DNA from: Bacteroidales bacterium
Lineage (GTDB): Bacteria; Bacteroidota; Bacteroidia; Bacteroidales; JAAYJT01
DNA: 64,000 nt
Reading direction: 5' to 3'
NCBI GenBank assembly: GCA_014860575.1
Contig: JACZJK010000035.1
Span: 67,175-131,174 of the forward strand
Below, one piece after another: positions 4,762-33,912 of the stretch. The translations under genes were made by a program, and so were the position numbers. Position 1 is the stretch's first letter. Every line of letters begins with the position of its first letter. The notes under the pieces are model-generated. The model was not told the DNA's origin. It saw nothing but the letters and a program-made list of their open reading frames with translations, and searched no databases.

Positions 4762-4769
4762 TATCTTTG
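4762..4769 (+). promoter_or_regulatory. Candidate Bacteroidota -7 promoter box (TATCTTTG) for the regulator gene
   Basis: Exact match to the TAnnTTTG consensus, 34 nt upstream of ATG 4803. It overlaps the TTG at 4767 that the ORF track used as the start. Confidence 0.4.
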
Positions 4770-4802
4770 AACCTGCTTAAATCACCGATTTGGTTCAAAC
4801 CG

Positions 4803-7679
4803 ATGCTGACCAGGAAAAGGGCACATAGTTTAAGGATAAACACTCTCAACCTTGGGTTGCTTATTCCTTTTCTGGTAATTCACAGCCTTTTTTATTCTCA
4901 AAGCCCTTATCACATAACCAATTATAAAAAATCTGATTATGGCGCTGCCAATCAGAATTGGGATATTGACCTTGATGCCAACGGCAACGTTTTTATTGCC
5001 AATCATAAAGGCTTGCTCAGTCTTTCAGGTTCGCATATTTCCCTGAACGAACTTCCAGGCAAAACTATTATCCGCTCGGTAGCATCCATCAATAACAGGA
5101 TTTATACTGGTTCTTTCGAGGAATTTGGTTATTGGGAAAATGATGAGAACGGTCAGTTGCATTACTATTCGTTAGTTCCGTTGCTTACTGGTGATTCGTT
5201 GCTGAATGATGAGATTTGGAAAATTGTAAATGTGGGAGACCAAATCTATTTCCAGAGTTTTGGGAAATTGCTTTGTTACGAAAACCATCGTGTCAGCTCC
5301 ATAACAATTCCGGGTTCCATGATGTTCTTGATCAAATGCAACGAAAGACTTTTTGCCCAGCAAATTGATGGTGGACTTTACGAAATCATAGACAAACAGC
5401 TAATTTTTATTGAAGGAAGCCAGATATTCAGCGAAACGGAAATTAAGGCGATATTGCCATTGGAGAACGGCAGGTTTATAATAGGAACAAGTTCCCGTGG
5501 GCTCATACTTTTTGACGGCCTGGATTTTCAGGAGTGGGAGATTCCGGTTTCAGAGCAACTTAAAGCCTTTAAGATCAACAACGGGATCAGGATTGGCGAC
5601 CGGCTGATTTTTGGAACAATCTTGAATGGCGTTTTTATTCTCAGCCTCGATGGCGAACTCGTTTATCATATCAACACAGCAACATCACTTCAAAATAATA
5701 CTGTGCTGGCAGTTCATGGAGACGCTGACAACAATCTTTGGGTAGGGCTTGATAAAGGCTTTGATTATATTGCATTCAATACCCCCCTTGTAACTTACAT
5801 CGAATCAGCGGAAAGTTTTGGAACCGTTTATGCTGCTTGTCTTTTTAAGAACACACTTTACGTTGGAACCAACCAGGGAATTTATTATTTCAGTATGTAT
5901 GCTGATGGGTTGCTATATAACAAAAAGTTTCTCAACGGATCACAGGGACAGGTTTGGTTCATCAATATAATTGATGGGGCTCTCTACTGTGGGCTAAATG
6001 ATGGCACATACCTGATAAAGGACAATGAGCTGACTCCTGTGAGCAACGTCAGCGGAGGTTACAATCTAAAGCATGCCACATTGCATGATGAGCAATTCAT
6101 GATTCAGAGTACATATAGCGACCTAGTGGTTTATAGTAAACAAAATGTAACCTGGATGCAAAGCCATACTATGGCTGGATTTGGAGCTCCGGCGCGCTTT
6201 CTTGAAATGGATCATACCGGAAACATTTGGCTGGGGCATACCATAGCAGGCTTGTATTTGGTTCAGCCGAACGCTGGATTAGATACAGCTATGCTTGTAC
6301 TCAAACCAGGCATCGAACATGGCATCCATGATAATTGGAACCATATTTACAAAGTTGACAACAGAATTATTGTACCAACCGGCCAAGCCTTGCTGCAATG
6401 GGATGCCATTCAAAACAAAATGGTTCCATACCATGAACTTGCAATGCAGCTTGAAGGATTTGAAGCATCGCATACAATCCTTTCGGCAGGGCCAGGTAAA
6501 TACTGGTTCATAAAAGAAAACGAAGTCGGTTTTTTCGAGATCCGGTTTGGTAAGGCCGAACTGTTGTATCGCTTGCTTCCGCAGATGTACAGCCTGAGCA
6601 TGGTGGAGGATTATGAAAACATCGTAGCGCTCAATGACAGCCTGCAACTTATTTGCCTTGAGAATGGTTTTTCTATTCTGAACCTTCAGCGTTTGAACCG
6701 GCTACCTGACTTAAACGCACCACCGCTGATCAGCGAGGTCGTTTTCTGGAAAACCTCAGAAAATAAGATACGGTACAAACCTGACACCGACTCGAAAAAG
6801 CAGTTTAAACATAGTCATAATAACCTGCAGTTTATCTTTTCAGCGCCCGGCCCAGTTGGCAAAAAGAAGTACTTCCAGTATAAACTACATAGTTTTGATA
6901 TAGATTGGAGCGATTGGATCACTACATCGGAAATCACTTACAACCGCCTGCCTCCCGGGTCTTATACATTCATGTTACGAACACTTACAAACCAGGGAGT
7001 GATCACACAAAATGCACAGGTTTCAATAAAGATAAGGCCACCCTGGTACCTCTCGTATTTTTCATTTGCGTTTTATGTGCTGTTTTTTGTTGGCCTTGTT
7101 TGGTTAATAAGGCTCAATTACCTGCGGAGAAACTGGAAAAACCAGGAGGAGATACTTCGCAAGGAACAAGAGAAAATTCTGCTTCAAAAAGAACAGGCCG
7201 AAAGTGAGGTCATACGATTAAGTAACGAAAAGCTGCAATCTGAAATAATGTTGAAGAATTCGCAACTTGCCAACAGTACGATGGCGTTGTTAAGAAAGAA
7301 CGAATTGCTGGGCAATTTGCAGGAAGAGTTAAACCGGCAAAGGGAAGAACTCGGGCAAAGACTTCCCAGGAAATATTTCATGCGTATTAACCGATTGATT
7401 GAAAACAGTTTTAAGAGCGACCAGGAATGGGAAGTGTTTGAAAAACTTTTCGACCAGGCTCATGAGAATTTCTTCCAGCGACTCAAATCTGATTACCCTG
7501 GCCTTACCCCAAGCGATCTCAGGCTTTGTGCTTACCTGCGCCTGAATTTATCATCAAAGGAAATTGCCCCATTGCTTAATATCTCAGTAAGAGGGGTTGA
7601 GGAGCGGCGATACCGTTTACGTAAACGCCTTCATCTGGCATCAGAACAAAATCTTATAGAATTTATACTTGCTTACTGA
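4803..7679 (+). CDS. Transmembrane one-component regulator: propeller-repeat sensor + Y_Y_Y domain + TM + coiled coil + LuxR/GerE HTH
   Basis: N-terminal hydrophobic anchor, then ~650 aa of propeller-like repeats. A Y_Y_Y-type segment (YFQYKLHSFDIDWSDW..YNRLPPGSYTF) is followed by the TM helix FSFAFYVLFFVGLVWLI and a heptad-rich stretch. The C-terminal HTH reads LTPSDLRLCAYLRLNLSSKEIAPLLNISVRGVEERRYRLRKRL. I see no histidine-kinase H-box, ATPase or receiver motifs. Confidence 0.8.
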   Translation: MLTRKRAHSLRINTLNLGLLIPFLVIHSLFYSQSPYHITNYKKSDYGAANQNWDIDLDANGNVFIANHKGLLSLSGSHISLNELPGKTIIRSVASINNRIYTGSFEEFGYWENDENGQLHYYSLVPLLTGDSLLNDEIWKIVNVGDQIYFQSFGKLLCYENHRVSSITIPGSMMFLIKCNERLFAQQIDGGLYEIIDKQLIFIEGSQIFSETEIKAILPLENGRFIIGTSSRGLILFDGLDFQEWEIPVSEQLKAFKINNGIRIGDRLIFGTILNGVFILSLDGELVYHINTATSLQNNTVLAVHGDADNNLWVGLDKGFDYIAFNTPLVTYIESAESFGTVYAACLFKNTLYVGTNQGIYYFSMYADGLLYNKKFLNGSQGQVWFINIIDGALYCGLNDGTYLIKDNELTPVSNVSGGYNLKHATLHDEQFMIQSTYSDLVVYSKQNVTWMQSHTMAGFGAPARFLEMDHTGNIWLGHTIAGLYLVQPNAGLDTAMLVLKPGIEHGIHDNWNHIYKVDNRIIVPTGQALLQWDAIQNKMVPYHELAMQLEGFEASHTILSAGPGKYWFIKENEVGFFEIRFGKAELLYRLLPQMYSLSMVEDYENIVALNDSLQLICLENGFSILNLQRLNRLPDLNAPPLISEVVFWKTSENKIRYKPDTDSKKQFKHSHNNLQFIFSAPGPVGKKKYFQYKLHSFDIDWSDWITTSEITYNRLPPGSYTFMLRTLTNQGVITQNAQVSIKIRPPWYLSYFSFAFYVLFFVGLVWLIRLNYLRRNWKNQEEILRKEQEKILLQKEQAESEVIRLSNEKLQSEIMLKNSQLANSTMALLRKNELLGNLQEELNRQREELGQRLPRKYFMRINRLIENSFKSDQEWEVFEKLFDQAHENFFQRLKSDYPGLTPSDLRLCAYLRLNLSSKEIAPLLNISVRGVEERRYRLRKRLHLASEQNLIEFILAY

Positions 7680-17317: not shown

Positions 17318-18703
17318 ATGAAGAAGATATTTACTTTGTTTTTAATCGCATTATCAGTGTCTGCCTGCAACCAACCAAATCAAGTAGTGTTTAAATCGCA
17401 TGGGAAAATAGATTACCCATTATCACAGGCTGATGAACTCATGCTCGATTCTATACAGAAGAAAACATTTCTCTTCTTTGTGAATGAACAGCATCCTGAA
17501 TGGGGTATTGTGAAAGACCGCTCTGCTGACTGGGCGCCATCAAGCATAGCTTCCACAGGATTTGGTATTCCATGTTTCGCAATTGGAGTAGAAAGAAATT
17601 GGATTGCACGGGAAGAAGCAGCGCAAATAGTGCTCTACATGCTAAATTTCTTTTACAATTCTGAGCAGAGCACTGACGCGCTGGCAACAGGCTACAAAGG
17701 ATTTTATTATCACTTCCTAACGATGGACACCGGAGAACGTGAGTGGGATTGCGAACTTTCCTCGATTGATACCGGCTTGCTGATGATGGGGATCATATTT
17801 GCGCGTAATTATTTCAATGCAGACAATAAAACTGAAAAGCAAATTCGCTCACTTGCCAGTAAACTAATTGACCGACTGGAATGGAATTTCCTGGACATGC
17901 CAGCCGAAAGCCAGCATCCCCATACGATTTCAATGGGCTGGGATCCCGAAGAAGGTTTGCATAGCTGGGGTTGGACGGGGTATAATGAAGCGCTGTTCCT
18001 ATATGTGCTGGCCGCCGGTACCGGAATGGAAAATGTTGAAAGAAGCTATAATTCATGGTTATCAACATACAAATGGAATACTCCTTATGAAGGCCTTTCG
18101 CATGTTGCTTTCCCTCCATTGTTCGGTCATCAGTTTTCGCAGGCATTTATTGATTACCGCGGCCTTGTTGATTCATACATGAAAGAAAAAGGCATTGACT
18201 ATTTCGAAAATTCGCGCCGTGCAACCTATGTTCAGCAACAATACGCCATTGAAAACCCACATGGCTGGGTCGGTTATGATTCGCTTTGCTGGGGTGTAAC
18301 TGCAAGTGATGGACCCACAGAGATTCATAATTTCGATGACAAAGAATTTTTAGGGTATGCAGGCAGGGGAGCTGCCGGACCTGAGTACAATTATTTTGAT
18401 GATGGAACCATCGCTCCTTATGCATCGCTTTCATCCTTGCCGTTTGCACCCGAAATTGTTCTTCCAACCATTCATTCCATGATTGAGAAGCACGGCGACA
18501 GCATCTGGGGCAAATACGGATTCTACGATGCTTTCAATCCAACAGCCAAATGGGTGAATGATGATTTTATCGGCATCGCCCAGGGTCCTATGCTTATCAT
18601 GATTGAAAATTTCAGAACCGGCCTGGTCTGGGATTATGTGATGAAAGATCCTGTTATCCAGGATGGATTGAATAAGCTGGGCTATGAATACATGGGCAAG
18701 TAA
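17318..18703 (+). CDS. Lipoprotein, GH144-like catalytic domain only (paralog of 15213-17198)
   Basis: Lipobox VSAC followed by the non-acidic NQPNQ. Motifs are colinear with the upstream paralog: SIASTGFGIPCFAIGVERNW, WGKYGFYDAFNP and IAQGPMLIMIENFRTGLVW. Confidence 0.7.
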   Translation: MKKIFTLFLIALSVSACNQPNQVVFKSHGKIDYPLSQADELMLDSIQKKTFLFFVNEQHPEWGIVKDRSADWAPSSIASTGFGIPCFAIGVERNWIAREEAAQIVLYMLNFFYNSEQSTDALATGYKGFYYHFLTMDTGEREWDCELSSIDTGLLMMGIIFARNYFNADNKTEKQIRSLASKLIDRLEWNFLDMPAESQHPHTISMGWDPEEGLHSWGWTGYNEALFLYVLAAGTGMENVERSYNSWLSTYKWNTPYEGLSHVAFPPLFGHQFSQAFIDYRGLVDSYMKEKGIDYFENSRRATYVQQQYAIENPHGWVGYDSLCWGVTASDGPTEIHNFDDKEFLGYAGRGAAGPEYNYFDDGTIAPYASLSSLPFAPEIVLPTIHSMIEKHGDSIWGKYGFYDAFNPTAKWVNDDFIGIAQGPMLIMIENFRTGLVWDYVMKDPVIQDGLNKLGYEYMGK

Positions 18704-18806: not shown

Positions 18807-21800
18807 ATGATGAAGAAATTTGCACTCTCTACATTATTGTTTTTAATGACAACGGTCGGTTTGGCTCAGATCCAAACGCTTGATCAGTTTGAAAACAAAT
18901 CCGGCTGGGATTTTATACAGTCCGATGGAGTTGATCTCAACCTCTCAGTAGACAAAGGATTAAGCGATAATGCACTCCGCTTTGATTATGATTTCACAAA
19001 AGGAACCGGCTACGGGGGCATCCAGAAATTGTTTCCGATTGACCTGCCCGAAAACTATGAGTTTACCTTTTATTTGAAAGCCGAATCGCCGGCAAACAAT
19101 TTTGAGGTTAAATTTATTGATAGCAGCGGCGACAATGTCTGGTGGGTGAATAACCGCAATTATGATTTCCCGGAAGAATGGAAAAAAATCACAATTAAAA
19201 AAAGGCATATCGGATTTGCCTGGGGTCCCACCGATGACCGTGACTTAAAACGCATTGACCGGATTGAGTTTACAATTGCCTCTTTCGTTGGCGGCAAAGG
19301 CACAATCTGGATTGATGATCTCAAATTTAAGCCGCTTCCGCCCGAAACAGCTACTTATCCTGATCCCATTGTAACTGCCTCTTCATCGCATCGTAATCAC
19401 CAACCCGCGCTTATCCTCGACGATTCAAAGGAATCTTCATGGCTGAGCCGTAAGCGTAAAAATCAGTTTGTGCATTTTGATTTTCGAACCCAGAGGGAAT
19501 TTGGTGGCCTACAGATTACGTGGGAAAAGGATCTTCGCGCCAAAAGCTTTGAAATACTTGTTTTCGATGACAATCAATCCTGGGAGAAAGTTTACTCAGT
19601 CAGATCAAATCATGGAGATGTAAGCTTCATAAGAATGCCTGAAACCGAAGCCAGATATTTAAAGATTAATCTTTTAGATGGGGCTACAAAGAACAGGTTC
19701 GGGATTGCTGAAGTCAATTTTCTAGACATAAAAAGCGCTATGTCAGCCAATGATTTTCTCAGATACACTGCTCAGAATTCTACCGCAGGTGATTATCCGC
19801 GCTATTTTCTTGAGCAGGCTTCGTACTGGACTGTAACAGGCGTTAACAACGATATGAAAGAAGCCATGATCAATGAAGATGGAATGGTTGAGGTGGATAA
19901 AGCCCTGTTTTCAATTGAACCAATGATAATATCCGGTGGCAAACTCTATAACTGGAACAATGTACAATCAAACCAATCTTTGAATTATTTTGAAGATGAT
20001 GGCGGGCTTGGTTTCACACCATCAGTAAGCTGGCTTTACGATGATATAAATTTTGTGACAGGGATTTCTGCCAGCGGAGAAGCCAATGTTGATTCCCGCC
20101 TGAATATTGCTTACTCATTCACCAACACTTCAGGCCAAACGAAGGATTTCGAGTTTTATTTGCTGGTACGGCCATTCCAGGTGAATCCTTATTACCAGTT
20201 TTTGAACCTCGAGGGCGGCGCTGGTAAAATTCATTCGATCCGTGGACCGGAAAAAGGTAGGGCAATTACCGTTGATAAGAAGAAACTGTTCTCTACCATA
20301 GATTATGATCATTTCGGGGCATTTGCTTTTGATGCTGGCAACGTAGTTGATTTTATCCGGAATGGCGAAATTCCTTACAGGACTTCTGCCACTGATCCGC
20401 AAGGGCTGGCAGGTGGAGTGATGAAATATATTATGAGACTGAATCCCGGCGAGCGCAAGGAATTCTTTGTAGTAGTCCCGTTTTATGATCCTGTTCCTGA
20501 GAACCACGAAATAAGCAACGAAATAATTGCAGAATATTTCAGACAATCTACCGGGTTCTGGAGAAATCGGGTGGACCACATTAAATTCAACCTGCCCGAA
20601 TCGGCTGACAGGATTGTAAATGCCTATAAATCGAACCTTGCCTATATATTGATCAACCGCGATAAAGCCGGGATCCAACCCGGTTCGCGTTCGTACGAGA
20701 GAAGCTGGATACGTGATGGATCGCTTACTTCATCGGCGCTGTTAAAATCAGGAATTGTTGAAGAGGTGAAAGACTTCATCAACTGGTATGCCGATCACCA
20801 GTACGAAAGTGGCAAAGTTCCCTGTGTTGTGGATTTTCGCGGGCCCGATCCGGTTCCCGAGCACGATAGCCACGGCCAACTGATTTATCTGATCCGTGAA
20901 TATTTCAACTTCACAAAGGACACAGCCTTTCTGCGATCAAAAAATGAAAACGTTTTAATGGCAGTAGAGTACATTGAATCGTTAATTGCCGAAAGATCAA
21001 CCGACCATTTCAAATTCGGCAACGACAGCATCCGGGCTTATTACGGCCTGGTTCCGGAATCCATCAGTCATGAAGGCTATTCCGAAAAACCCATGCACTC
21101 CTATTGGGATAATTTTTTTATCATGAAAGGTTTAAAAGATGCGGTTGAAATCCAGAAGATTCTTGGCGAGCAAGAGCATTACGAAAGCATTGCAAAAACA
21201 CGCGACACTTTCAGGGAAAACCTGTACAATTCCTTTAAATTGGCGATGAAAACCAGGAACATTGATTACCTCCCCGGTTGTGTTGAGCTTGGCGATTTTG
21301 ATGCCACATCAACAACCATCGCCTTAACACCATGCAACGAACTGAATAATCTTCCCCGGCCGGAGGTTTATAATACCTTCGAAAGGTATTACAAGTATTT
21401 CAGGACCCGACGAGACGGTGAAATTGAATGGATCAATTACACCCCTTACGAGACGCGCCTGATAGGTTCTTACATCATTTTGGATCAACCGGAAAGGGCG
21501 CATGCATTAATTGATTTTTTCCTCGACGATCAGCGGCCTCAGGGTTGGCATCATTGGGCCGAAGTTGTTTGGAAAGATTACCGCATTCCGCGATTTATAG
21601 GCGATATGCCACATACCTGGGTCGGCAGCGACTTCATCAATGCCATCCGCTCAATGTTTGTTTATGAAAATGAGTACGATGAATCGCTTGTACTCGCGTC
21701 GGCGCTTTACCAGGATTGGATTGATTCACCTGAAGGAATTTCGGTTGAGAACCTTCCGACCTATTATGGTGAAATCTCATTTTCAATTAAGAAGGAAAAG

Positions 21801-21983
21801 TCGCGCTACCACTTCTCAATTTATGGTGATGCGAACCTTCCCGCCAATGGAATTAAAATCAGGAATTTCAACAGTTTGTTAATGCCTGAAAAAATCACCA
21901 TCAATGGTATTGAGACCCATGATTTTAATGAAAGGGAGATTTCGGTAAGGGAATTTCCTGCAGAAGTAATTGTTTATTATTAA
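18807..21983 (+). CDS. Secreted multidomain protein: CBM-like jelly roll + F5/8 type C (discoidin)-like domain + GH15-like (alpha/alpha)6 region, candidate uncharacterised glycosidase
   Basis: Signal peptide (..TTVGLAQ). The N-terminal ~160 aa are a sandwich-like domain ending WIDDLKFKP. The discoidin-like segment reads PALILDDSKESSWLS ... RYLKINLLDG..FGIAEVNFLD. The C-terminal half has SYERSWIRDGS, which resembles the YxxxWxRD motif of GH15. Confidence 0.55.
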   Translation: MMKKFALSTLLFLMTTVGLAQIQTLDQFENKSGWDFIQSDGVDLNLSVDKGLSDNALRFDYDFTKGTGYGGIQKLFPIDLPENYEFTFYLKAESPANNFEVKFIDSSGDNVWWVNNRNYDFPEEWKKITIKKRHIGFAWGPTDDRDLKRIDRIEFTIASFVGGKGTIWIDDLKFKPLPPETATYPDPIVTASSSHRNHQPALILDDSKESSWLSRKRKNQFVHFDFRTQREFGGLQITWEKDLRAKSFEILVFDDNQSWEKVYSVRSNHGDVSFIRMPETEARYLKINLLDGATKNRFGIAEVNFLDIKSAMSANDFLRYTAQNSTAGDYPRYFLEQASYWTVTGVNNDMKEAMINEDGMVEVDKALFSIEPMIISGGKLYNWNNVQSNQSLNYFEDDGGLGFTPSVSWLYDDINFVTGISASGEANVDSRLNIAYSFTNTSGQTKDFEFYLLVRPFQVNPYYQFLNLEGGAGKIHSIRGPEKGRAITVDKKKLFSTIDYDHFGAFAFDAGNVVDFIRNGEIPYRTSATDPQGLAGGVMKYIMRLNPGERKEFFVVVPFYDPVPENHEISNEIIAEYFRQSTGFWRNRVDHIKFNLPESADRIVNAYKSNLAYILINRDKAGIQPGSRSYERSWIRDGSLTSSALLKSGIVEEVKDFINWYADHQYESGKVPCVVDFRGPDPVPEHDSHGQLIYLIREYFNFTKDTAFLRSKNENVLMAVEYIESLIAERSTDHFKFGNDSIRAYYGLVPESISHEGYSEKPMHSYWDNFFIMKGLKDAVEIQKILGEQEHYESIAKTRDTFRENLYNSFKLAMKTRNIDYLPGCVELGDFDATSTTIALTPCNELNNLPRPEVYNTFERYYKYFRTRRDGEIEWINYTPYETRLIGSYIILDQPERAHALIDFFLDDQRPQGWHHWAEVVWKDYRIPRFIGDMPHTWVGSDFINAIRSMFVYENEYDESLVLASALYQDWIDSPEGISVENLPTYYGEISFSIKKEKSRYHFSIYGDANLPANGIKIRNFNSLLMPEKITINGIETHDFNEREISVREFPAEVIVYY

Positions 21984-22006: not shown

Positions 22007-24100
22007 ATGAACGAACAGAAAGAAGGCAGAGTAAAGCATGTTTTAGCAGAAGATAGAATCCCTTTCCCACAACTGGCAGCTTATGGTGCAGGCGGAATCA
22101 TTCCCATTGCCCTCTTTAACATAGCCGGGATACTCGTTGGTTTGATGGGCAATATTAGTTTGGGGCTCAGCGCTTTCTGGCTGGGAGTTATTTTAATCAT
22201 ACCCCGTTTGTGGGATGCAGTTTCCGATCCCATTATCGGCCATATGTCAGACAATACCCGTACTCGCTGGGGACGTCGTCGACCATATTTGCTGATAGGC
22301 GGAATCCTGGTAGCATTCTTTTTTGTTGTAATCTGGTGGATTCCCAAAGGTGATATGGTGAGGGTTTGGTTCCCGTCAGAGGCGGGCTTCCAGGCTTTCC
22401 AACTTGTTTACATCTTGGTCGCGCTCCTGCTGTTTTATACTGCCTGCACCATTTTTGAGATCCCACACGGCGCACTTGGTATGGAGATGACCACCGACCA
22501 ACATGAGCGCACCCGGCTTTTCAGTGCCAAAAGCTTTGTCGGTAATCTTTTTGCAATGAGTACACCCTGGCTCTTTGCCCTGGCAAGCCTGGAAATTTTT
22601 AGAGGACCCGGAGGCAATGAGGCTGATGGCATGCGCTATGTTTCCATACTTATCGCAGCCATCCTGATCCCACTCTCGTTCTGGTGGTTCTTTACATTGC
22701 GTGAACCAGGATTCAAACGTGTGAAGAAACAGGCGAAGACGCCTTTCTGGAAAGATGTAAAACACACCGCCAGCAACAGGAATTTTATCATGCTGACGTT
22801 AACGATCTTTACCTTGGCCATGGGATTTAATTTCGTGAACCTGCTGGGGTCGTACATTCCTATTTTTTACATTTTCGGAGGAGATAAAGTTGCAGGGGCA
22901 TATTTGCTTGGAATAAATGGCACTATCTGGGCCATCACAGGGGTGCTGGCTGTATTCCCCCTTAACTGGATCAGTCCGAAACTGGGTAAACGAAAAACCC
23001 TCTCAATTGCAATTTTACTCATGTGCCTCGCGCAACTCTCCAAAATCTTCGCCTATAACCCTCAATATCCTTACCTGATTATTATTCCCACAGTTTTACT
23101 TTCAGCCGGGATGCTGTTTTTCTTTACCCTGGGTTCTTCAATGGTGGGCGATATTTGCGACGAAGATGACCTGAAAACGGGTACACGCACCGAAGGCAGT
23201 TATTATTCTATTTTCTGGTGGTTTATTAAAATGGGAACCGCTTTGGCCAGCTTTGTTGCCGGAGCGCTAATCGTATTTACAATGTTCGACGAAACCCAGG
23301 TTACCAGGGTTGACAGCCTGCAGGGGAGCATCAGGGAAATGCAGGTCAAGGTGCAGGATTGGGGAAGCGCTCAATCACTCATGGGAACCAATACTGAGCT
23401 GATTGAAAAAGCAAAAATACAGACTGCGGAAGCGTTGGCAGAATCACAAACATATGCAATTTATCTTGAGAAGGAATTGCTGAGACAGCCTGAAATGTCG
23501 GGTAAAAAAATAGCTACCTACGAAAGCCAGAAAAAAGACATGTTGGCAAACATCCTTACAGCCACCAACTCCAACATGAATGAGTTGGAACAATTACAGT
23601 CGCGTTTACAAAACATAACATTACCGGCTGATGAAGTTCTTGCCAAATCAATTACAGAAGAGGCAATCACCCTTACATTGCAAACCAGGCTTAACAAAGC
23701 AAGAATGAATTCATTTGAGCTAATGCTGCACCTTGAAGCCAGGGCAATGAAAACAAAAAAGAGCGAAGAACACTATCAGGAACTGATGGAAAACATGCTG
23801 GGCGTAAATAACCGGCTTGCCAATCTGAACACTGCATTGCCACTCGAAAAGCTTGATCAGGAGCTAAGCGTTGTTGAAGACGAAATTGTAGAACTCACAC
23901 AGCAATCGCCATATACCTTGTTTATGATGCGCGCGGTAGAAATAGGGCTGCCATTGCTGTTGAGTATCTTTTCTGTTTTCTTTTTACTGCGTTACTCGCT
24001 AACTGAAAAACGATCCAGCGAAATTAAGGCACTTCTCAAGCAAAGAAACAAGGAAAGACGGGATGAGGAGGACAATGCCAATGGAACAATTATGGCTTAA
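22007..24100 (+). CDS. GPH-family (MFS_2) glycoside:cation symporter with a ~208-aa coiled-coil-like insertion before the last TM helix
   Basis: GPH signature WDAVSDPIIGHMSDNTRTRWGRRRPYLLIG. Repeated hydrophobic helices run up to aa ~426. A hydrophilic heptad-rich segment is encoded by 23285-23908. One final helix follows (TLFMMRAVEIGLPLLLSIFSVFFLL), then a charged tail. Confidence 0.8.
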   Translation: MNEQKEGRVKHVLAEDRIPFPQLAAYGAGGIIPIALFNIAGILVGLMGNISLGLSAFWLGVILIIPRLWDAVSDPIIGHMSDNTRTRWGRRRPYLLIGGILVAFFFVVIWWIPKGDMVRVWFPSEAGFQAFQLVYILVALLLFYTACTIFEIPHGALGMEMTTDQHERTRLFSAKSFVGNLFAMSTPWLFALASLEIFRGPGGNEADGMRYVSILIAAILIPLSFWWFFTLREPGFKRVKKQAKTPFWKDVKHTASNRNFIMLTLTIFTLAMGFNFVNLLGSYIPIFYIFGGDKVAGAYLLGINGTIWAITGVLAVFPLNWISPKLGKRKTLSIAILLMCLAQLSKIFAYNPQYPYLIIIPTVLLSAGMLFFFTLGSSMVGDICDEDDLKTGTRTEGSYYSIFWWFIKMGTALASFVAGALIVFTMFDETQVTRVDSLQGSIREMQVKVQDWGSAQSLMGTNTELIEKAKIQTAEALAESQTYAIYLEKELLRQPEMSGKKIATYESQKKDMLANILTATNSNMNELEQLQSRLQNITLPADEVLAKSITEEAITLTLQTRLNKARMNSFELMLHLEARAMKTKKSEEHYQELMENMLGVNNRLANLNTALPLEKLDQELSVVEDEIVELTQQSPYTLFMMRAVEIGLPLLLSIFSVFFLLRYSLTEKRSSEIKALLKQRNKERRDEEDNANGTIMA

Positions 24101-24117
24101 ATTGAAAATCTTTGAAA

Positions 24118-26547
24118 ATGAATTTTAGTATTAAGGAAAATAACTTTTACCTGGATAATAAAAAGGTCTTTCTCAATTCAGGTGAGATCCATTATTTCAG
24201 GGTTAAGCGTGAGTTATGGAACACTCACCTTGAAGCAGCAAAAGAAGCCGGGCTCGCAGCGGTAAGTTCTTACGTGCCCTGGGCCTGGCATGAGCCTGAT
24301 GAGGGCGTATTTGATTTTGATGGAACCACATTGCCTGAACGCGATCTCAAAGGCTGGCTGAAATTATGCAAGGATTTTGGTCTGACCTGCATTTTGAAAC
24401 CCGGCCCTTATATACTTGCCGAATTCCGCGGCGCCGGTCTTCCATATTGGTTCCTGAACAAATATGGAGAAGCGTTGAGAATGCATAACAGCAGGGGAGA
24501 AGCAGTTCCGAGCGATGGTGTAAGCCTGTTCCACCCTGGATATATCGAAAGTGTTACCCATTGGTATAATCATATTATGCCTTTTATTCGGGAGCATGAA
24601 ATCTCAAATGGCGGGCCGGTGATCATGATGCAGATTTGCAATGAAATTGGTTTGTTCTCATGGCTCGCACATCAGGCTGATTACAGTGAGGATATCAGGC
24701 AGCGGTTTATAAAATACCTTGAAAGCAGGTTTGCCAACATTGAAAAAGTGAATTCATTGTGGGGAACCAATTTCAATGATTTTGAGCATATTGCTTTACC
24801 ACCCGATGGCAAACTTCCGTACGAATCAAAAGGAGATCGCAGCCGTGATTACGAATGGCATTCCTTCTGGCGCATGTATTACGCTGAATACCTCAAAATG
24901 CTTGCGCAGATGGCCAGGGTACATGGCGTTACGGTTCCTTTTTATCACAACCTGCCGGGCTGGATTTACGGGCATGGATATGAGTTTCCGGTGAATATTA
25001 CAATGTATGAGGAATTGTACAGGGAAAAGAGCGATATCATTTTCGGGGTTGATCATATTCCTGAGTTCATGTCGCACTGCAACATGCACGACGACCGGAT
25101 TATTAATGATATAACCATTGCAATGCAGGGAAACAAACCATTGTTTGCTGCGGAATTTCAGAGCGGTTCACGCGAATACCATGTGGTTACGAACCCACGT
25201 GAAATGGAACTTTTTTACAAAGCCAGCATTGCCAATGGACTGACCGGCTGGAATTACTACATGTTCTCACAGGGGCGCAACCCGGAGAAAATGGGCTACT
25301 CAGGCGATACATTTTATTGGTTCACACCATTGACTGCCGAAGGGGAGCGTACAAGCGCGTTTTCATTGGTTCAGCGAATGAGCAAACTCATCAAAACAAA
25401 TGAAAGCCTCATTCTCGAAGCAAAACGTCAATCCGAAATATGTGTGTTGTTCTACCCTCCCTATTATGCTACAGAACTGGAAAGGCCTGAAGAAGGAGCA
25501 TCCGGACTAAAGTTTTCTTATTCTGCCATTCGCAGGCCTGCATATTTTGATGGTTTGCTGAAAGCACTGCAGGTTCTGAATGTAGATTATGACATGCTTG
25601 ACCTGACGAAAACTACTGCTGCTGAGTTAAATAAATACAAACAGGTTTGGGCATTTTGCACCGATGAAATGAATTCAGGGGATCAGCAAACCATGATTAA
25701 CTATGTTGCCGCAGGTGGAAATTTGGTAATCTTCCCGAACCTGCCCAACCGGGAAATGTCACAAAAACCCTGCGCAATTATCCGGGATGCATTGTCAGTT
25801 AAACCCTTAGGAGTCGAAACCATTGATTCGCCTCTTATTGATGTTTTTAGTTTAAGCGATATCAAATGTGCGAACCCGCAAATCGTTTATCCCGAAGAAA
25901 CATTTACGTCTGATGAAGTAATTGCCCGAACACTGAAGGGCAGTGTTTGCGGTTTTTCAAAATCGCATAAAAAAGGCAGGATAATTCATCTGGGAACATG
26001 GATTGGGTTCGACACCGAAGGACACAAACCGATTTACGAAGCTTTACTGGAAACATCGGGAGCAAGACTTCGGAAAGCATCGTCAGACAACGATTTCATA
26101 ACGGTAAGGCAACGATTTACCGATGAAAATTCCGCGATGCTGTTTGTCGGAAATTATTATAATGAAGAGCAAACCGGAACAGTAACCTATACGCATCCAG
26201 GCAGCCATGAAACTATAACGATACCGTTTTCAGGCAAAGCAACTTTGTGGCCGGCTTTATATGCTGTTCTGACCCCAATATGCATGCAAATGGGAGAAGG
26301 ACTGACGATACTTCACAGCACATCCGGTATCCTGGCGATTGAAACAAAGGAATCTATAACTGAAATCACAGTTTTCGGAGATCGCGACCTGGCAGGGGAA
26401 ATCGTTTTTGAAGGCGAGAATTTGGCTCAGATCAATTCGATTACCATTGACGATGAACCGGTTAAAATGCTAAGCAGTGGGAAGCGGATTGTAGTTAATT
26501 ATCCGCACAAGCACAGAGAAGAATTTGTCATCCGTCTTAATTTTTAA
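24118..26547 (+). CDS. Cytoplasmic GH35-like clan GH-A enzyme (beta-galactosidase fold; true specificity uncertain)
   Basis: No signal peptide. Motifs are GEIHYFRV..ELW, SSYVPWAWHEPDEGVFDFDG, ILKPGPYILAEFRGAGLPYWF and GGPVIMMQICNEIG (NE acid/base position). The track start is TTG 24112; I prefer ATG 24118. Confidence 0.7.
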   Translation: MNFSIKENNFYLDNKKVFLNSGEIHYFRVKRELWNTHLEAAKEAGLAAVSSYVPWAWHEPDEGVFDFDGTTLPERDLKGWLKLCKDFGLTCILKPGPYILAEFRGAGLPYWFLNKYGEALRMHNSRGEAVPSDGVSLFHPGYIESVTHWYNHIMPFIREHEISNGGPVIMMQICNEIGLFSWLAHQADYSEDIRQRFIKYLESRFANIEKVNSLWGTNFNDFEHIALPPDGKLPYESKGDRSRDYEWHSFWRMYYAEYLKMLAQMARVHGVTVPFYHNLPGWIYGHGYEFPVNITMYEELYREKSDIIFGVDHIPEFMSHCNMHDDRIINDITIAMQGNKPLFAAEFQSGSREYHVVTNPREMELFYKASIANGLTGWNYYMFSQGRNPEKMGYSGDTFYWFTPLTAEGERTSAFSLVQRMSKLIKTNESLILEAKRQSEICVLFYPPYYATELERPEEGASGLKFSYSAIRRPAYFDGLLKALQVLNVDYDMLDLTKTTAAELNKYKQVWAFCTDEMNSGDQQTMINYVAAGGNLVIFPNLPNREMSQKPCAIIRDALSVKPLGVETIDSPLIDVFSLSDIKCANPQIVYPEETFTSDEVIARTLKGSVCGFSKSHKKGRIIHLGTWIGFDTEGHKPIYEALLETSGARLRKASSDNDFITVRQRFTDENSAMLFVGNYYNEEQTGTVTYTHPGSHETITIPFSGKATLWPALYAVLTPICMQMGEGLTILHSTSGILAIETKESITEITVFGDRDLAGEIVFEGENLAQINSITIDDEPVKMLSSGKRIVVNYPHKHREEFVIRLNF

Positions 26548-26634: not shown

Positions 26635-29600
26635 ATGAACATTATAAACCAATCAGGGCTCACCGTTAAATTCCTTGGAAATGGCTCAATCAAAAGTTTT
26701 GAAGCAGATCCCATCAGGATCAGCCTTAAAGAAACAACGCCTTTTTCAAAACCGGGAGCCAATATCTACCTTAGAAAAAGGTCAAAACCCATTGAGTTCA
26801 TAGCCCTCCTCGGACCCGAAAGCAATAGTCGGTTTAAAGTTTCCGGCGAGACTTTGATTGCCGGCGGCATCTGGCAGGGTATTGAATATCTTTGCTCACT
26901 CCGGCTTTCGCCGAAAAGTCTGAGCTGGCAGTTCATGATCGAAATCAACAACAAATCTGATGAAGAGGTCGAGCTTGATTTAATTTATGTGCAGGACATT
27001 GGATTGAAACCAATCAATTCAGGGCTGATCAATGAATATTATGTAAGCCAATACCTCGAAAGACGAATCCTTGAAGATCAAACCTTTGGCTCAGTAATAT
27101 GTTGCCGCCAGAATATGAAAGAAGCCATTGGCAATCCTTGGTTCATGATGGCTTGCGAAAATGGCGCTGTTGCAGGAAGCACGGATGGCATGCAGTTTTA
27201 TGGCAAAACTTACCGGGAAACCGGGATTCCTGAAGGTTTGATTATAGAAAGGCTGGGGGGCGAGTATGCCGGTGAATCATCTGTTGTTGTTTTGCAGGGA
27301 AAACCCTTCAAACTTGCTATAGGAGAAAATTTTAAGAGTGTTTTTTTTGCTACTTATTTGCACGATCACCCAAAGGCTTCATCAGAAGACGATCTGGGCC
27401 GCTTAGCCACCCTGAAATCGGAATTTGATATTAAGAATCCTTCCGGTAGTCCTGGCGAATGGTTAGCACCGGAAAAAAACATCTTCAATACTTCCGCTTT
27501 TTTCCCTGTTGAAGATTTAAATGATGTCGAACTGAACCAGTTTTTTGGCAACGAACGGCGACATCCTGAAAAAGTGGATGGCCGCTTATTGTCGTTTTTC
27601 AGCAAAGAGAACAGGCATATTGTACTCAGGGCAAAAGAGTTGCTTGCCGACCGGCCTCATGGCCATATCATGCAGGCCAAAGCCGGACTGGTACCTGATG
27701 AAAACATCGTATCCACCACTGCTTTTATGTTTGGTGTTTTCAATTCGCATCTTACACAGGGAAATACAAATTTCAATACACTGCTATCCATTTGCACGAG
27801 CCAGTTTAATCTTTCGCCAGAATCAGGCCAACGGATTTTTGTTGAAATAAATGACACACTCTATTTGCTTGGAGTTCCCTCCGCGTTTGAAATTGGCTTG
27901 AACCATTGCCGCTGGATTTATAAGCATGGCAAGTACTGCTTCCAGGTTCGAACCTGGACATCTAAATCAGCCCCACAGGTGAATATGGATGTCAAGGTTC
28001 TCAGGGGTGATGATGTGAGATTTATAATTACGCATGATTTTGATGGTTTGAACGGCTGGAAAGCTTTTACCGGAAACAACAATGGCGAATATATTTTCAG
28101 GCCAAAGCCAGATAGCATGATAGCCGGAAAATTTCCAGAAGCACAATTCCGGATAAGGGTTCAAAGCGAGAATGCTGAATTTTCGGCGAACGATAATGAA
28201 GTCTTTTACGGTAATGACAAGAGCTTATCTGATTCAAAGTACGTGCTGGATGTCAGGACAACTTCTGCGTTTTGTATGAGTTTTCTTGCTGAAGTAGGTT
28301 GCGAAGCCGAAATGATTCAGTTTGAAAACGCCGATGAACAGTGGCTCTCCGATTGCATTGATGCCGGTTTTGCATGGCAGGGCTTAAGTTTGAACCTATC
28401 TCTTGAAAGTCAACAGAAAGATGTTTTAGCTATTCGTGAAATCTTACCCTGGTATGGCATGAACGCTTTGACCCATTTTCTGACCCCATACGGCCTCGAA
28501 CAGTTCAGCGGCGCTGCCTGGGGAACACGCGATGTTGCCCAGGGGCCGGTTGAGTTGTTGCTGTGCCTGCAAAAATATGATGAAGCCAGGCAAGTTTTGC
28601 GCATTATCTTCTCGAACCAAAACCCTGATGGCGGCTGGCCGCAATGGTGGATGTTCGATAGCTATCACAACATCAGGGCGCATGATTCCAACGGCGATGT
28701 GGTTTACTGGTGCATCATAGCGCTTGCTAATTATGTCAAAGTTACCGGCGATACACGCATCCTTGACGAAGTACTCCCTTATTATCATCAAAACGGAATT
28801 AATGCTGCTGAAAAAACTTCACTCAGCGAGCACATGAACAGGCTGATCAATATGATTACCGGATCATTTATCCCGGGCACCGCGCTTGTGCCCTTTGGTG
28901 GCGGCGACTGGAATGATTCTTTACAACCTGTTAGTGAGCAACTCGCTCAACGCATGATCTCAAGCTGGACGGTAGAAATGAACTACCAGGCTTTTAAGGA
29001 TTATCAGCAGGTATTTATAAGAACCGGACAGACTGAAAAAGCCGGCGAACTGGCTCAGATTAGCGAAAGGATCAAATCTGATTTTAACAAATATCTTGTA
29101 AAAGATGGCGTGGTAGCAGGATATGGACTGGTGGAAAAAAATGGCAACATCAGTGTTTTGCTTCACCCGACTGATACCACAACCGGAATCCAATACAGTA
29201 TTTTACCCATGGAACGTGGCATACTCAGTGAAATCTTTACCAAAGAACAGGCCTTGCATCACCAGGATTTAATTGAAAAGCACCTGAAAGGCCCCGATGG
29301 CGCCCGCCTCATGGATCGCCCACTCAAATATAAAGGAGGCATTCGAACAATTTTTCAAAGAGCTGAAAGCAGTACTTTCTTTGGCCGCGAAATTGGCCTT
29401 ATGTATATGCATGAACATATCCGTTATGCAGAGTCATTGGCCCGCACGGGCAATGCCGATGCGTTTGTGAAAGCGCTTCGGCAGGCAATCTCGGTGGCTT
29501 ACAGGGATATTGTGGATTGTGGTGATATCCGCCAGGCAAATTGTTATTACAGCAGTTCAGATGTTGCTTTCAAAAGCAGGTATGAAGCTGATGAGCTTTA

Positions 29601-29979
29601 TGATAAGATTGCGGCTGGCAACATCACAGTCAGAGGTGGCTGGCGGGTGTATTCAAGTGGGCCGGGTATTTATATCGGGCTGATAATTTCAAAATTACTG
29701 GGCCTACGGATTGAATCTGATTATGTGATCCTTGACCCGGTTATGCCGTTTGCGTTTAGCGGGCTAAATGTTTCAATGAAATTTCTGAGCCATGACGTAA
29801 GGTTCAGATATAGAATAGAAGAAAACAACCACAGCCCGAAAACTGTTTTCATCAATATGCATCCTGTTGAGTTCACAAAAGAAGCAAATCCATACAGGAA
29901 TGGTGGTGTGATGATCCGCAAGGAAGCGTTTATCAAGATGTTGCATCAGGCATCAAACGAAATTGAAATTATCTTATAA
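26635..29979 (+). CDS. Cytoplasmic GH94-like glycoside phosphorylase (candidate 1,2-beta-oligoglucan phosphorylase)
   Basis: No signal peptide; 1114 aa. The (alpha/alpha)6-type region has AAWGTRDVAQGPVELL, NPDGGWPQWW and FGGGDWNDSLQP. GDWND is the catalytic-Asp motif I associate with GH94 phosphorylases. Confidence 0.65.
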   Translation: MNIINQSGLTVKFLGNGSIKSFEADPIRISLKETTPFSKPGANIYLRKRSKPIEFIALLGPESNSRFKVSGETLIAGGIWQGIEYLCSLRLSPKSLSWQFMIEINNKSDEEVELDLIYVQDIGLKPINSGLINEYYVSQYLERRILEDQTFGSVICCRQNMKEAIGNPWFMMACENGAVAGSTDGMQFYGKTYRETGIPEGLIIERLGGEYAGESSVVVLQGKPFKLAIGENFKSVFFATYLHDHPKASSEDDLGRLATLKSEFDIKNPSGSPGEWLAPEKNIFNTSAFFPVEDLNDVELNQFFGNERRHPEKVDGRLLSFFSKENRHIVLRAKELLADRPHGHIMQAKAGLVPDENIVSTTAFMFGVFNSHLTQGNTNFNTLLSICTSQFNLSPESGQRIFVEINDTLYLLGVPSAFEIGLNHCRWIYKHGKYCFQVRTWTSKSAPQVNMDVKVLRGDDVRFIITHDFDGLNGWKAFTGNNNGEYIFRPKPDSMIAGKFPEAQFRIRVQSENAEFSANDNEVFYGNDKSLSDSKYVLDVRTTSAFCMSFLAEVGCEAEMIQFENADEQWLSDCIDAGFAWQGLSLNLSLESQQKDVLAIREILPWYGMNALTHFLTPYGLEQFSGAAWGTRDVAQGPVELLLCLQKYDEARQVLRIIFSNQNPDGGWPQWWMFDSYHNIRAHDSNGDVVYWCIIALANYVKVTGDTRILDEVLPYYHQNGINAAEKTSLSEHMNRLINMITGSFIPGTALVPFGGGDWNDSLQPVSEQLAQRMISSWTVEMNYQAFKDYQQVFIRTGQTEKAGELAQISERIKSDFNKYLVKDGVVAGYGLVEKNGNISVLLHPTDTTTGIQYSILPMERGILSEIFTKEQALHHQDLIEKHLKGPDGARLMDRPLKYKGGIRTIFQRAESSTFFGREIGLMYMHEHIRYAESLARTGNADAFVKALRQAISVAYRDIVDCGDIRQANCYYSSSDVAFKSRYEADELYDKIAAGNITVRGGWRVYSSGPGIYIGLIISKLLGLRIESDYVILDPVMPFAFSGLNVSMKFLSHDVRFRYRIEENNHSPKTVFINMHPVEFTKEANPYRNGGVMIRKEAFIKMLHQASNEIEIIL

Positions 29980-32475: not shown

Positions 32476-33912
32476 ATGAATCAGAAAGAACCAGTCAGTT
32501 TTCACCCACCTGCGATTAATCATGCCCGGGTGATCGGCCTTTCAGTTGTTGCAGCCTTGGGTGGCTTTCTTTTCGGTTTCGACAGCGGGGTAATCAATGG
32601 TACAGTAGGTGCGCTGCAACAAGCCTTTAATTCCGATGCAGTTGGCACAGGCTTTAATATTGCTTCTATGCTATTGGGTTGTGCAGCAGGCGCTTTTTTT
32701 GCCGGAACACTGGCCGATAAAATTGGCCGTAAATACACCCTGCTGATAGCTGCTGTTGCTTTCATTGTCAGCGCCTGGGGTTCAGGGATTGCAGATGGTT
32801 CAACAGAATTTGTTATTTTTCGTGTGCTTGGAGGACTTGCCGTGGGCGCTGCCAGTATTATTGCTCCAGCCTATATTGGAGAAATAGCTCCCTCACATAT
32901 TCGGGGCAGATTGATTTCGCTTCAGCAACTTGCCATTGTGCTAGGTTTGTTCATGGCTTTTTTCTCCAATTACAATATTGCCAATGCTGCAGGTGGCGCA
33001 TCCGGAGCGTTTTGGTGGGGATTCAATGCCTGGCAGTGGATGTTCTGGATTGAAATTATTCCTGCATCACTTTTCTTCATCTTTTTATTCTTCATACCCG
33101 AATCACCCCGCTACCTTGTTGCTGCAGGTAAAGATGAAAAAGCCAGGAAAATAATTGCCAGCCTCACTGATGAGGAAACAGCAAGGATGCAGGTTGAAGA
33201 AATAAAGCTCACAGTTTTTCGCGAACGCAAGCCAAGACTTTCAGATATTATCAATCCGGCCAGTGGAAAGATCCATCCCATTGTGTGGATAGGAATTGCC
33301 CTTGCCGCTTTGCAGCAGTTTACCGGTATCAATGTTGTGTTTTATTATGGTTCAGTATTATGGCAAGCCGCTGGCTTTACTGAAGCCGACGCCTTGCTGA
33401 CCAATGTAATCAGTGGTTCGGTAAACGTGTTTTTCACTTTTGTGGCGATTGCTTTGGTTGACAAAGTTGGCCGCAAACCATTGTTGCTTGTAGGTGCGTT
33501 AGGACAAGCCGTGACCCTCGGAATTTTAGGTTTGATTTTCGCTTTCGGCGCAAAGGATGCTTCAGGCGGACTTGAATTAACCGGCAAAAGTGGTGTGATT
33601 GCGCTGGTGGTGGCTAACCTTTATATTGCTTTCTTCGCAACCACATGGGGGCCGGTAATGTGGGTGATGCTCGGCGAAATGTTCCCTAATAAATTCAGGG
33701 GAGCAGCACTTGCTGTTGCTGGTTTGGCCCAATGGGGCTCCAACTTCCTGATTACAATTTCTTTCCCGATCCTTCTTACATCCATCGGGCTTGGAATTTC
33801 GTATGGCATTTACGCCGCTTTTGGCTTGCTGGCATTTTGGGTCGTAAAGCGTTATGTTACGGAAACCAAGGGCCGAACGCTTGAGGAAATATCTATGGAT
33901 GAAGCCGGTTAA
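32476..33912 (+). CDS. MFS sugar porter (monosaccharide:H+ symporter)
   Basis: Sugar-porter signatures are GFLFGFDSGVING, GRKYTLL, PESPRYL and TETKGRTLEEI. About 12 hydrophobic segments. Confidence 0.9.
   Translation: MNQKEPVSFHPPAINHARVIGLSVVAALGGFLFGFDSGVINGTVGALQQAFNSDAVGTGFNIASMLLGCAAGAFFAGTLADKIGRKYTLLIAAVAFIVSAWGSGIADGSTEFVIFRVLGGLAVGAASIIAPAYIGEIAPSHIRGRLISLQQLAIVLGLFMAFFSNYNIANAAGGASGAFWWGFNAWQWMFWIEIIPASLFFIFLFFIPESPRYLVAAGKDEKARKIIASLTDEETARMQVEEIKLTVFRERKPRLSDIINPASGKIHPIVWIGIALAALQQFTGINVVFYYGSVLWQAAGFTEADALLTNVISGSVNVFFTFVAIALVDKVGRKPLLLVGALGQAVTLGILGLIFAFGAKDASGGLELTGKSGVIALVVANLYIAFFATTWGPVMWVMLGEMFPNKFRGAALAVAGLAQWGSNFLITISFPILLTSIGLGISYGIYAAFGLLAFWVVKRYVTETKGRTLEEISMDEAG

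Follow-up and report, generated by a model that had tools for sequence, protein, structure and literature searches.

The stretch analyzed here, called the window in what follows, is a 64,000-nucleotide segment of contig JACZJK010000035.1 from a Bacteroidales bacterium, and the element in question is a large hydrophilic segment inside a sugar symporter of the GPH/MFS_2 type. The symporter gene lies in a canonical polysaccharide utilization locus (PUL) whose genes run in the order Reg_prop/Y_Y_Y regulator, SusC, SusD, a protein with a type IX secretion system tail, a LamG protein, two PF10091 (GH144-type) proteins (GH144a and GH144b), a 1058-aa protein bearing F5/8 type C, the transporter, a GH35-like protein, a SOGP-type GH94 protein, a GH3 protein, and a second major facilitator superfamily (MFS) sugar porter. 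The open reading frame (ORF) of the transporter is one unbroken frame of 697 codons. Within it, positions 23285-23908, which correspond exactly to aa 427-634, had been described from the letters and translations alone (hereafter, the original prediction) as a coiled-coil-like soluble insertion ahead of the last transmembrane (TM) helix. The coordinates of the transporter, its parts, and its most constant neighbors are collected in Table 1.

Table 1. Positions in the window of the transporter, its segments, and syntenic neighboring genes
Feature	Position	Strand	Evidence
Whole gene, 697-aa GPH/MFS_2-type symporter with insert	22007..24100 (stop included)	+	ORF, Pfam, MelB, AlphaFold2
Membrane core, TM1-TM11 (aa 21-426), including the loop 2-3 signature and D70, D74, E151	22067..23284	+	Hydropathy, AlphaFold2, MelB alignment
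Nearly invariant native part of loop XI-XII, predicted periplasmic (aa 427-440, FDETQVTRVDSLQG), aligned with MelB YTPNVAQSAQTLQG	23285..23326	+	Alignment, conservation
Insertion proper (aa 441-633, about 193 residues), predicted orphan all-alpha periplasmic domain	23327..23905	+	Excision, AlphaFold2, no database relative
Predicted helix 1 (aa 429-452), ends at invariant W452	23291..23362	+	DSSP on AlphaFold2 models, conservation
Predicted helix 2 (aa 462-491), conserved A476, Y483, L487, K489, E490	23390..23479	+	AlphaFold2, conservation
Predicted helix 3 (aa 500-535), most variable helix	23504..23611	+	AlphaFold2, conservation
Predicted helix 4 (aa 543-582, 40 residues), most conserved part of the insert, family consensus LTLQTKLEKARMNSFELM	23633..23752	+	AlphaFold2, conservation
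Predicted helix 5 (aa 587-606), begins with invariant E-H589-Y590, kept even in divergent high-GC variants	23765..23824	+	AlphaFold2, conservation
Predicted helix 6 (aa 613-631), leads into TM12 via Q633-x-P635-Y636	23843..23899	+	AlphaFold2, conservation
TM12 (aa 635-662), nearly invariant, R642 and E645 near the periplasmic end	23909..23992	+	Hydropathy, AlphaFold2, conservation
Basic, predicted cytoplasmic C-terminal tail (aa 663-697)	23993..24097	+	8 K+R in 35 residues
GH144-type (PF10091) lipoprotein	17318..18703	+	Syntenic in 41/43 loci
1058-aa signal-peptide protein with F5/8 type C domain, immediately upstream	18807..21983	+	Syntenic in 39/43 loci
GH35-like, IaSGT homolog, no signal peptide	24112..26547	+	Syntenic in 41/43 loci
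SOGP-type (GH94) 1,2-beta-oligoglucan phosphorylase homolog, no signal peptide	26635..29979	+	Syntenic in 40/43 loci

Membrane core, insertion point and conservation

The intact protein is matched by Pfam MFS_2 (PF13347) over aa 49-442 with 215.9 bits (cutoff, 27; profile positions 25-401 of 427), and this score, above the gathering threshold, places the transporter in GPH/MFS_2. The best family in NCBIfam is TIGR00792 ("gph"), whose cutoff of 231.35 bits is missed by the intact protein (166.6 bits) and also when the insert is excised (177.4 bits, with an alignment that is then full length, 30-437 of 437). The MelB equivalog NF007749 (cutoff, 456 bits) gives 114.8 bits intact and 127.7 bits excised. 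Since it falls short of both curated cutoffs, that for GPH and that for MelB, even with the insert removed, the transporter represents a divergent GPH-like subfamily. An orthology with melibiose permease was rejected because the NF007749 score is under the cutoff, and public annotations of the homologs read only "MFS transporter" or "GPH family symporter."

Likeness to MelB and the GPH family (TC 2.A.2; MFS_2) extends over the 12-TM MFS fold, the loop 2-3 signature, the acidic cation-site residues, and the basic C-terminal tail. Salmonella MelB (4M64) matches the transporter with an E value of 3.9e-14. The GPH signature DPIIGHMSDNTRTRWGRRRPY is found at aa 74-94, aligned with the MelB loop 2-3 motif; WDAVSDPIIGHMSDNTRTRWGRRRPY is aligned with the loop 2-3/cation-site stretch of MelB, and TIFEIP is aligned with its TIMDIP. 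Acidic residues D70, D74, and E151 occupy the MelB cation-site positions D55, D59, and D124 (helices II and IV), the position of MelB N58 is a serine, and loop 1-2 (MGNISL) is invariant. Furthermore, the full-length AlphaFold2 model matches MFSD2A and MelB structures with TM-scores on the target of 0.64-0.73. By Kyte-Doolittle hydropathy, the protein has hydrophobic helices as far as aa 428, no hydrophobic segment over aa 429-636, one more at aa 637-666, and then a K/R-rich tail, in which the motif RYSLTEKRSxEIKxLLKQRN is conserved. Both the GPH signature and the layout given in the original prediction (helices to about aa 426, a hydrophilic stretch at aa 427-634, one last TM helix, and a charged tail) are thus borne out.

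The start of the insertion lies somewhat later than had been proposed. MelB residues 36-408 align to aa 51-439, through helix XI and into the XI-XII loop, with FDETQVTRVDSLQ over MelB YTPNVAQSAQTLQ; residues 427-440 are native loop, so the true insertion begins at aa 441 (nucleotide 23327) rather than at 23285. We removed aa 441-633 in silico and realigned the profiles and MelB to what remained. Coverage of Pfam MFS_2 grew to 25-427 of 427 and its score from 215.9 to 222.6 bits, TIGR00792 was aligned over 30-437 of 437, and the MelB alignment extended through helix XII, onto which TM12 falls, to residue 431. Because excision restores an end-to-end alignment with MFS_2, TIGR00792, and MelB, aa 441-633 are a clean insertion in loop XI-XII, with TM12 and the tail as an ordinary GPH C terminus. 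This loop has about 10 residues in MelB, whereas the transporter has about 193 more.

The recurrence of the segment far exceeds chance. A whole-protein search returned 3,169 matches, the best 120 of which are 681-712 aa long (with one 603-aa exception) and 71-92% identical. Among the 65 sequences aligned, 60 carry an insert with a length of 209-211 aa, and segment 445-632 is exactly 188 aa in 63 of the 70 orthologous genes recovered from reference genomes, all of them intact. Mean identity among homologs is 49% in the insert versus 89-90% in the membrane core, and the ratio of nonsynonymous to synonymous substitutions (dN/dS; Nei-Gojobori, 224 gene pairs) is 0.24 in the insert (maximum, 0.40) versus 0.05 in the core. 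These values describe a peripheral domain on which purifying selection is real but relaxed. The conserved positions are grouped at both junctions (F427 to G440 and Q633-x-P635-Y636), with others at W452, at Y483/L487/E490, in helix 4 (L556 to K579), and at the invariant H589-Y590; the distal tip of the bundle is the most variable part.

A trivial origin of the segment, either a frameshift fusion or a neutral low-complexity spacer, would have the lower conservation of the insert (49% versus 89%) as the sole point in its favor. Against it stand 70 of 70 intact orthologs of the same architecture, a near-invariant length, the dN/dS of 0.24, the confident predicted fold described below, and the alignment of TM12 and the tail with MelB only once the insert is removed, and we give this explanation practically no weight. 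The two outcomes that the original prediction had named as fatal to itself, two genes joined by a frameshift and a functionless linker, are excluded by the same data, and its description of a large soluble insertion in a GPH-type symporter before the last TM helix agrees with excision, structure prediction, and conservation alike.

Two gene products (P0184 and P0186) join an unrelated N-terminal sequence to the last helices of the insert, TM12, and the tail. One of these N termini resembles part of a TonB-dependent receptor barrel, and both are probably chimeric assemblies or gene-call artifacts.

Predicted fold and sidedness of the insert

In the full-length AlphaFold2 run, which used 65 sequences, the mean predicted local distance difference test score (pLDDT) is 70, and the insert is predicted with more confidence than the core (80-92 over aa 500-620). 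Only short breaks of 3-4 residues each (aa 425-428 and 632-634) lead from the insert to TM11 and TM12. When the insert was modeled alone, pLDDT reached 87.7 and the predicted TM-score (pTM) 0.86, with all five models at a pLDDT of 85.9-87.7. These models confidently predict an independently folding, compact, all-alpha bundle with six main helices of 19-40 residues. The fraction of heptad a/d positions suitably occupied varies per helix between 0.44 and 1.00, being 0.44-0.71 in helices 1-4 and up to 1.0 in helices 5 and 6. A canonical long two-stranded coiled coil, with about 100 residues of uninterrupted heptads, was rejected, as the models show six loop-separated helices in a compact arrangement. 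The earlier label "coiled-coil-like" consequently holds for the helical, heptad-patterned character of the segment but not for one long coiled coil.

The heptad pattern bears on a role in oligomerization, in which the helices would pair between protomers and produce a transporter dimer. Helices 5 and 6, with their occupancy of up to 1.0, would suit such pairing, and the GPH member LacS is known to work as a dimer (literature listed in PMC8154325). On the contrary, although weakly, the monomer is predicted to fold compactly by itself (pTM, 0.86), with its hydrophobic stripes apparently satisfied intramolecularly, and we judge oligomerization quite unlikely as the function of the insert.

No relatives of the insert, by sequence or fold, were found in Pfam, NCBIfam, or the PDB. 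Its sequence matches 48 of 1.84 billion representatives, and all 48 are fragments or orthologs of the transporter. A periplasmic four-helix-bundle sensor (4HB_MCP, TorS-like) was considered and rejected, as there was no Pfam match and TorS appeared in Foldseek with an E value of 0.62 and a TM-score of 0.17. GPH carriers of the LacS/RafP type likewise carry an additional soluble domain, some 160-200 residues in size. The IIA(Glc)-like domain of LacS is C-terminal, cytoplasmic, a beta-sandwich, regulated by the phosphotransferase system (PTS), and recognizable by sequence, whereas the extra domain here is internal, predicted to be periplasmic and all-alpha, and an orphan. A LacS-type IIA fusion was therefore discarded, with no PTS_EIIA or other Pfam or NCBIfam match outside the MFS core.

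The sidedness of the insert follows from several features of the core. Hydropathy and the AlphaFold2 helices place 11 TM helices before it and 1 after it, and lysine plus arginine (K+R) residues number 34 on the seven segments predicted to be cytoplasmic versus 4 on the five short opposite loops. In the solved structures of MelB and MFSD2A, both termini are cytoplasmic and loop XI-XII is periplasmic. Because the homology and topology of MelB agree with this positive-inside count, the insert is strongly predicted to face the periplasm, in a carrier of 12 TM helices whose N and C termini are both predicted to be cytoplasmic. Among the neighbors, leaders of the lipoprotein type are present on GH144a, GH144b, and SusD, and signal peptides on the 1058-aa and GH3 proteins. 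The GH35-like and SOGP proteins have no signal peptide and would thus lie on the opposite side of the membrane from the insert.

This arrangement bears directly on the proposal that the insert is a cytoplasmic loop tethering the GH35-like and GH94-like enzymes at the import site. In its favor, the genes of the transporter, the GH35-like protein, and SOGP are closely linked and travel as a group. However, the carrier is N-in with 12 TM helices and the charge distribution given above, and the insert separates TM11 from TM12; the basic C-terminal tail aligns with the cytoplasmic tail of MelB, and both enzymes are without signal peptides, all of which contradicts tethering and makes it highly improbable. 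The topology of the locus is corrected accordingly: any partner of the insert must be periplasmic. Within that limit, the insert may have a regulatory, docking, or oligomerizing role, as was more widely suggested.

The beta-1,2-glucan locus and its relatives

One genome from each of 185,579 species was scanned by pattern, which yielded 272 confirmed matches, and the best 80 of these all span the insert. Almost all of these 80 are metagenome-assembled genomes labeled Bacteroidales, Lentimicrobiaceae, Draconibacterium/Prolixibacteraceae, or Marinilabiliales; three are labeled Verrucomicrobiae or Limnocylindrales.

Gene order was compared in 43 loci with full flanks. The genes kept with the transporter are GH144b and the GH35-like gene (41 loci each), the SOGP gene (40), and the gene of the 1058-aa protein (39). 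The SOGP of the window carries all four SOGP domains, and the GH35-like protein is a close homolog of the beta-1,2-glucosyltransferase IaSGT (PDB 7VKW; E value, 2e-154), for which reason an assignment as beta-galactosidase was rejected. The co-location of the GH144 glucanase, SOGP (GH94), GH3, and the IaSGT homolog marks the locus as one for beta-1,2-glucan utilization. The transporter is a fixed part of beta-1,2-glucan catabolism, with a glucanase and the cytoplasmic enzymes as its constant companions. Synteny suggests sophoro-oligosaccharides as its substrate, and we infer that the symporter is the dedicated inner-membrane importer of this utilization system. The outer-membrane SusC/SusD and the periplasmic GH144 glucanases would yield sophoro-oligosaccharides, the symporter would carry these across the inner membrane, and the cytoplasmic SOGP phosphorylase and IaSGT-like GH35 protein would process them.

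Several neighbors have particularities of their own. The GH35-like gene has a TTG start, and its product is about 90-120 residues longer than IaSGT at the C terminus. In the 1058-aa protein, the only Pfam match is F5/8 type C (aa 189-300), and there is no relative by sequence in the PDB; it is a candidate for an uncharacterized periplasmic enzyme or binding protein active on beta-1,2-glucan. The 970-aa regulator (4767-7679, + strand) has Pfam matches to Reg_prop and Y_Y_Y only, with no kinase or receiver domains, and its ORF is listed from a TTG, so that the true start may differ. GH144 beta-1,2-glucan PULs are reportedly accompanied by a one-component, membrane-spanning regulator of the BguR type (bioRxiv 10.64898/2026.01.10.698779), and the 970-aa protein fits this type.

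In copies that are divergent and appear to have been transferred, the cassette is reduced. On a 3.04-Mb contig labeled Verrucomicrobiae (L048; region 1-20885), it consists of a divergent GH144-like gene on the minus strand, the transporter (71% identical to that of the window), a GH35-like gene, and SOGP. This cassette adjoins a DDE_5 transposase, lies among housekeeping genes, with Mur ligase and Sdh genes in its flanks, and has neither SusC nor SusD within about 10 kb of the transporter; it looks like the horizontal transfer of a minimal unit without SusC/D. On a high-GC soil metagenome contig (L081; 1-2578), a divergent, Ala/Arg-rich transporter is followed directly by SOGP, with no GH35-like gene between them. 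An in-frame TAA at nucleotides 91-93 (GS*YS, where relatives have GSYYS) causes the gene to be called as a 287-aa fragment and is a sequencing error or the sign of a pseudogene.

The gene neighborhood also frames the idea that some periplasmic partner docks on the insert, be it GH144 or GH3, the 1058-aa protein, the BguR-like sensor, or SusC/TonB, for substrate channeling or for sensing coupled to transport. Helical bundles commonly mediate protein contacts, GH144a, GH144b, the 1058-aa protein, and GH3 share the compartment (by their signal peptides or lipoboxes), the gene of the 1058-aa protein is immediately upstream in 39 of 43 loci, and a BguR-type regulator opens the locus. Nevertheless, the copies labeled Verrucomicrobiae or Limnocylindrales and the high-GC soil copy keep the full insert with no homolog of the 1058-aa protein detected. 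The examined region of the Verrucomicrobiae-labeled contig lacks SusC/SusD, a divergent GH144-like gene is the only constant periplasmic neighbor, and the distal tip of the bundle, as said, varies the most. In our judgment, docking is an unlikely function.

Possible functions of the insert

To our knowledge, large folded domains outside the cytoplasm are almost never found on bacterial MFS carriers, whose known additions are either cytoplasmic fusions at the C terminus or hairpins of very small size, with extracellular loop 7 (EL7) of QacA as an example. Literature searches found no description of the insert domain. Among eukaryotes, mammalian PepT1 and PepT2 carry, in the stretch from TM9 to TM10, a sizable folded domain outside the cytoplasm (cited in PMC8154325 and PMC8565842). 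They resemble the transporter in having a large extracytoplasmic domain within a C-domain loop of an MFS symporter; they differ in being eukaryotic, in the immunoglobulin-like beta fold of the domains, in the loop concerned, and in the MFS family.

A functional counterpart is the uptake system of Ignavibacterium album and Listeria, whose clusters were assigned an ATP-binding cassette (ABC) transporter with a sophoro-oligosaccharide-binding protein (PMC8861115). This importer holds the same position in the pathway, delivering beta-1,2-gluco-oligosaccharides from the periplasm or the cell exterior to cytoplasmic SOGP and SGT. It belongs to a wholly different class of transporters, is driven by ATP, and uses a separate binding protein, whereas the transporter is a secondary carrier made of one polypeptide, to which a presumably periplasmic domain is fused. 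The comparison invites a role in substrate capture, in which the bundle would bind beta-1,2-gluco-oligosaccharides and hand them to the symporter, thereby replacing the soluble binding protein of the ABC type. Three observations agree with capture: the symporter is the sole inner-membrane candidate for oligosaccharides in the locus, the domain occurs solely in transporters from loci for beta-1,2-glucan, and its invariant residues include several that are polar or aromatic (W452, Y483, E490, K564, E571, H589, and Y590). On the other hand, aromatic residues amount to 4.7% of the insert versus 15.3% of the core, many of the conserved positions resemble heptad-core residues, and profile and fold searches found no similarity to a known carbohydrate-binding fold. 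The net charge of the insert is not conserved either, ranging from -11 to +8, and together with the low aromatic content it argues against a classic sugar-binding or an electrostatic role. We consider capture rather improbable.

A broader version of these ideas holds that the insert is a fused periplasmic receptor with an orphan helical fold, which would either capture oligosaccharides or dock the enzyme that produces them, and deliver them to the MFS carrier. We judge this quite unlikely. If true, it would be a single-polypeptide, "binding-domain-dependent" secondary transporter, in which one chain does a job that is left to a separate protein in ABC, tripartite ATP-independent periplasmic (TRAP), and tripartite tricarboxylate transporter (TTT) systems. 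It would also constitute both a new coupling of capture to an MFS carrier and a new fold for glycan recognition.

The reading that we favor, tentatively and with less than even confidence, is that the symporter imports beta-1,2-gluco-oligosaccharides and that the insert acts on it in cis, from the periplasm, as a cap or gate. The insert would be located over the transporter's C-terminal half, at the periplasmic face, and would serve as a cap, a vestibule, or a reinforcement of the extracytoplasmic gate at the outward-facing mouth during alternating access. Its action would resemble that of a far smaller element of QacA, the EL7 helical hairpin of the last extracellular loop, on whose contact with EL1 transport depends (PMC10425836). 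Like EL7, the insert is alpha-helical, interrupts the final extracytoplasmic loop of an MFS protein, and is conserved only in a subclade. QacA, however, is a 14-TM drug:H+ antiporter (DHA2) with an EL7 of about 25 residues forming one hairpin, whereas here a 12-TM sugar symporter bears a six-helix domain about eight times as large, with no sequence similarity between the two.

Four considerations lead us to prefer a cap or gate. The linkers joining the insert to TM11 and TM12 are very short; conservation within it is highest at the junctions and in those helices that connectivity puts closest to the membrane; it persists unchanged where the periplasmic PUL-specific partners that can be tracked are missing; and EL7 of QacA is the only documented parallel (PMC10425836). 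The reduced cassettes, composed of the transporter and SOGP with or without the GH144-like and GH35-like genes and with no SusC/SusD within about 10 kb, likewise argue for a function intrinsic to the transporter.

Other observations weigh against a cap or gate on such a symporter. The insert, at about eight times the size of EL7, seems to be more than the brace of a gate would need. Conservation rises only weakly toward the presumed membrane-proximal end (Spearman rho, 0.21), and dN/dS in the insert is 5 times that of the core, as would be expected for a peripheral rather than a mechanistically central element. The identity of the substrate has synteny as its sole basis. There is also a natural short variant, the 332-aa fragment P0136, whose insert of 114 aa retains helix 1 and helices 4b-6, without helices 2 and 3; it is represented by three member sequences on a 2.9-kb contig and is a possible assembly artifact.

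Whatever its action, the insert is an orphan domain of about 193 residues, fixed in the predicted importer for beta-1,2-glucan catabolism, a pathway recognized recently, in hundreds of Bacteroidales species, most of them uncultured. The insert-bearing transporter appears to be transferred horizontally together with the cytoplasmic enzymes. Should the insert gate, select, or capture oligosaccharides, this would account for the way in which a secondary carrier copes with substrates for which other phyla use ABC transporters. Since its in silico excision leaves the MFS alignment undisturbed, it may offer a tractable module for studying how accessory domains tune alternating access. The insert is unusual and experimentally tractable, and its effect may be modest.

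In TM12, aa 641-645 (MRAVE, 23927-23941) include Arg642 and Glu645, which are invariant within the motif MMR.VEIGLP even in the most divergent variants, where helix XII of MelB is purely hydrophobic. This pair may be part of an interface with the inserted domain. The second MFS carrier of the window (32476-33912, + strand), a 478-aa member of the Sugar_tr family downstream of GH3, is absent within 10 kb of the transporter in all 43 related loci and is probably a locus-specific monosaccharide porter.

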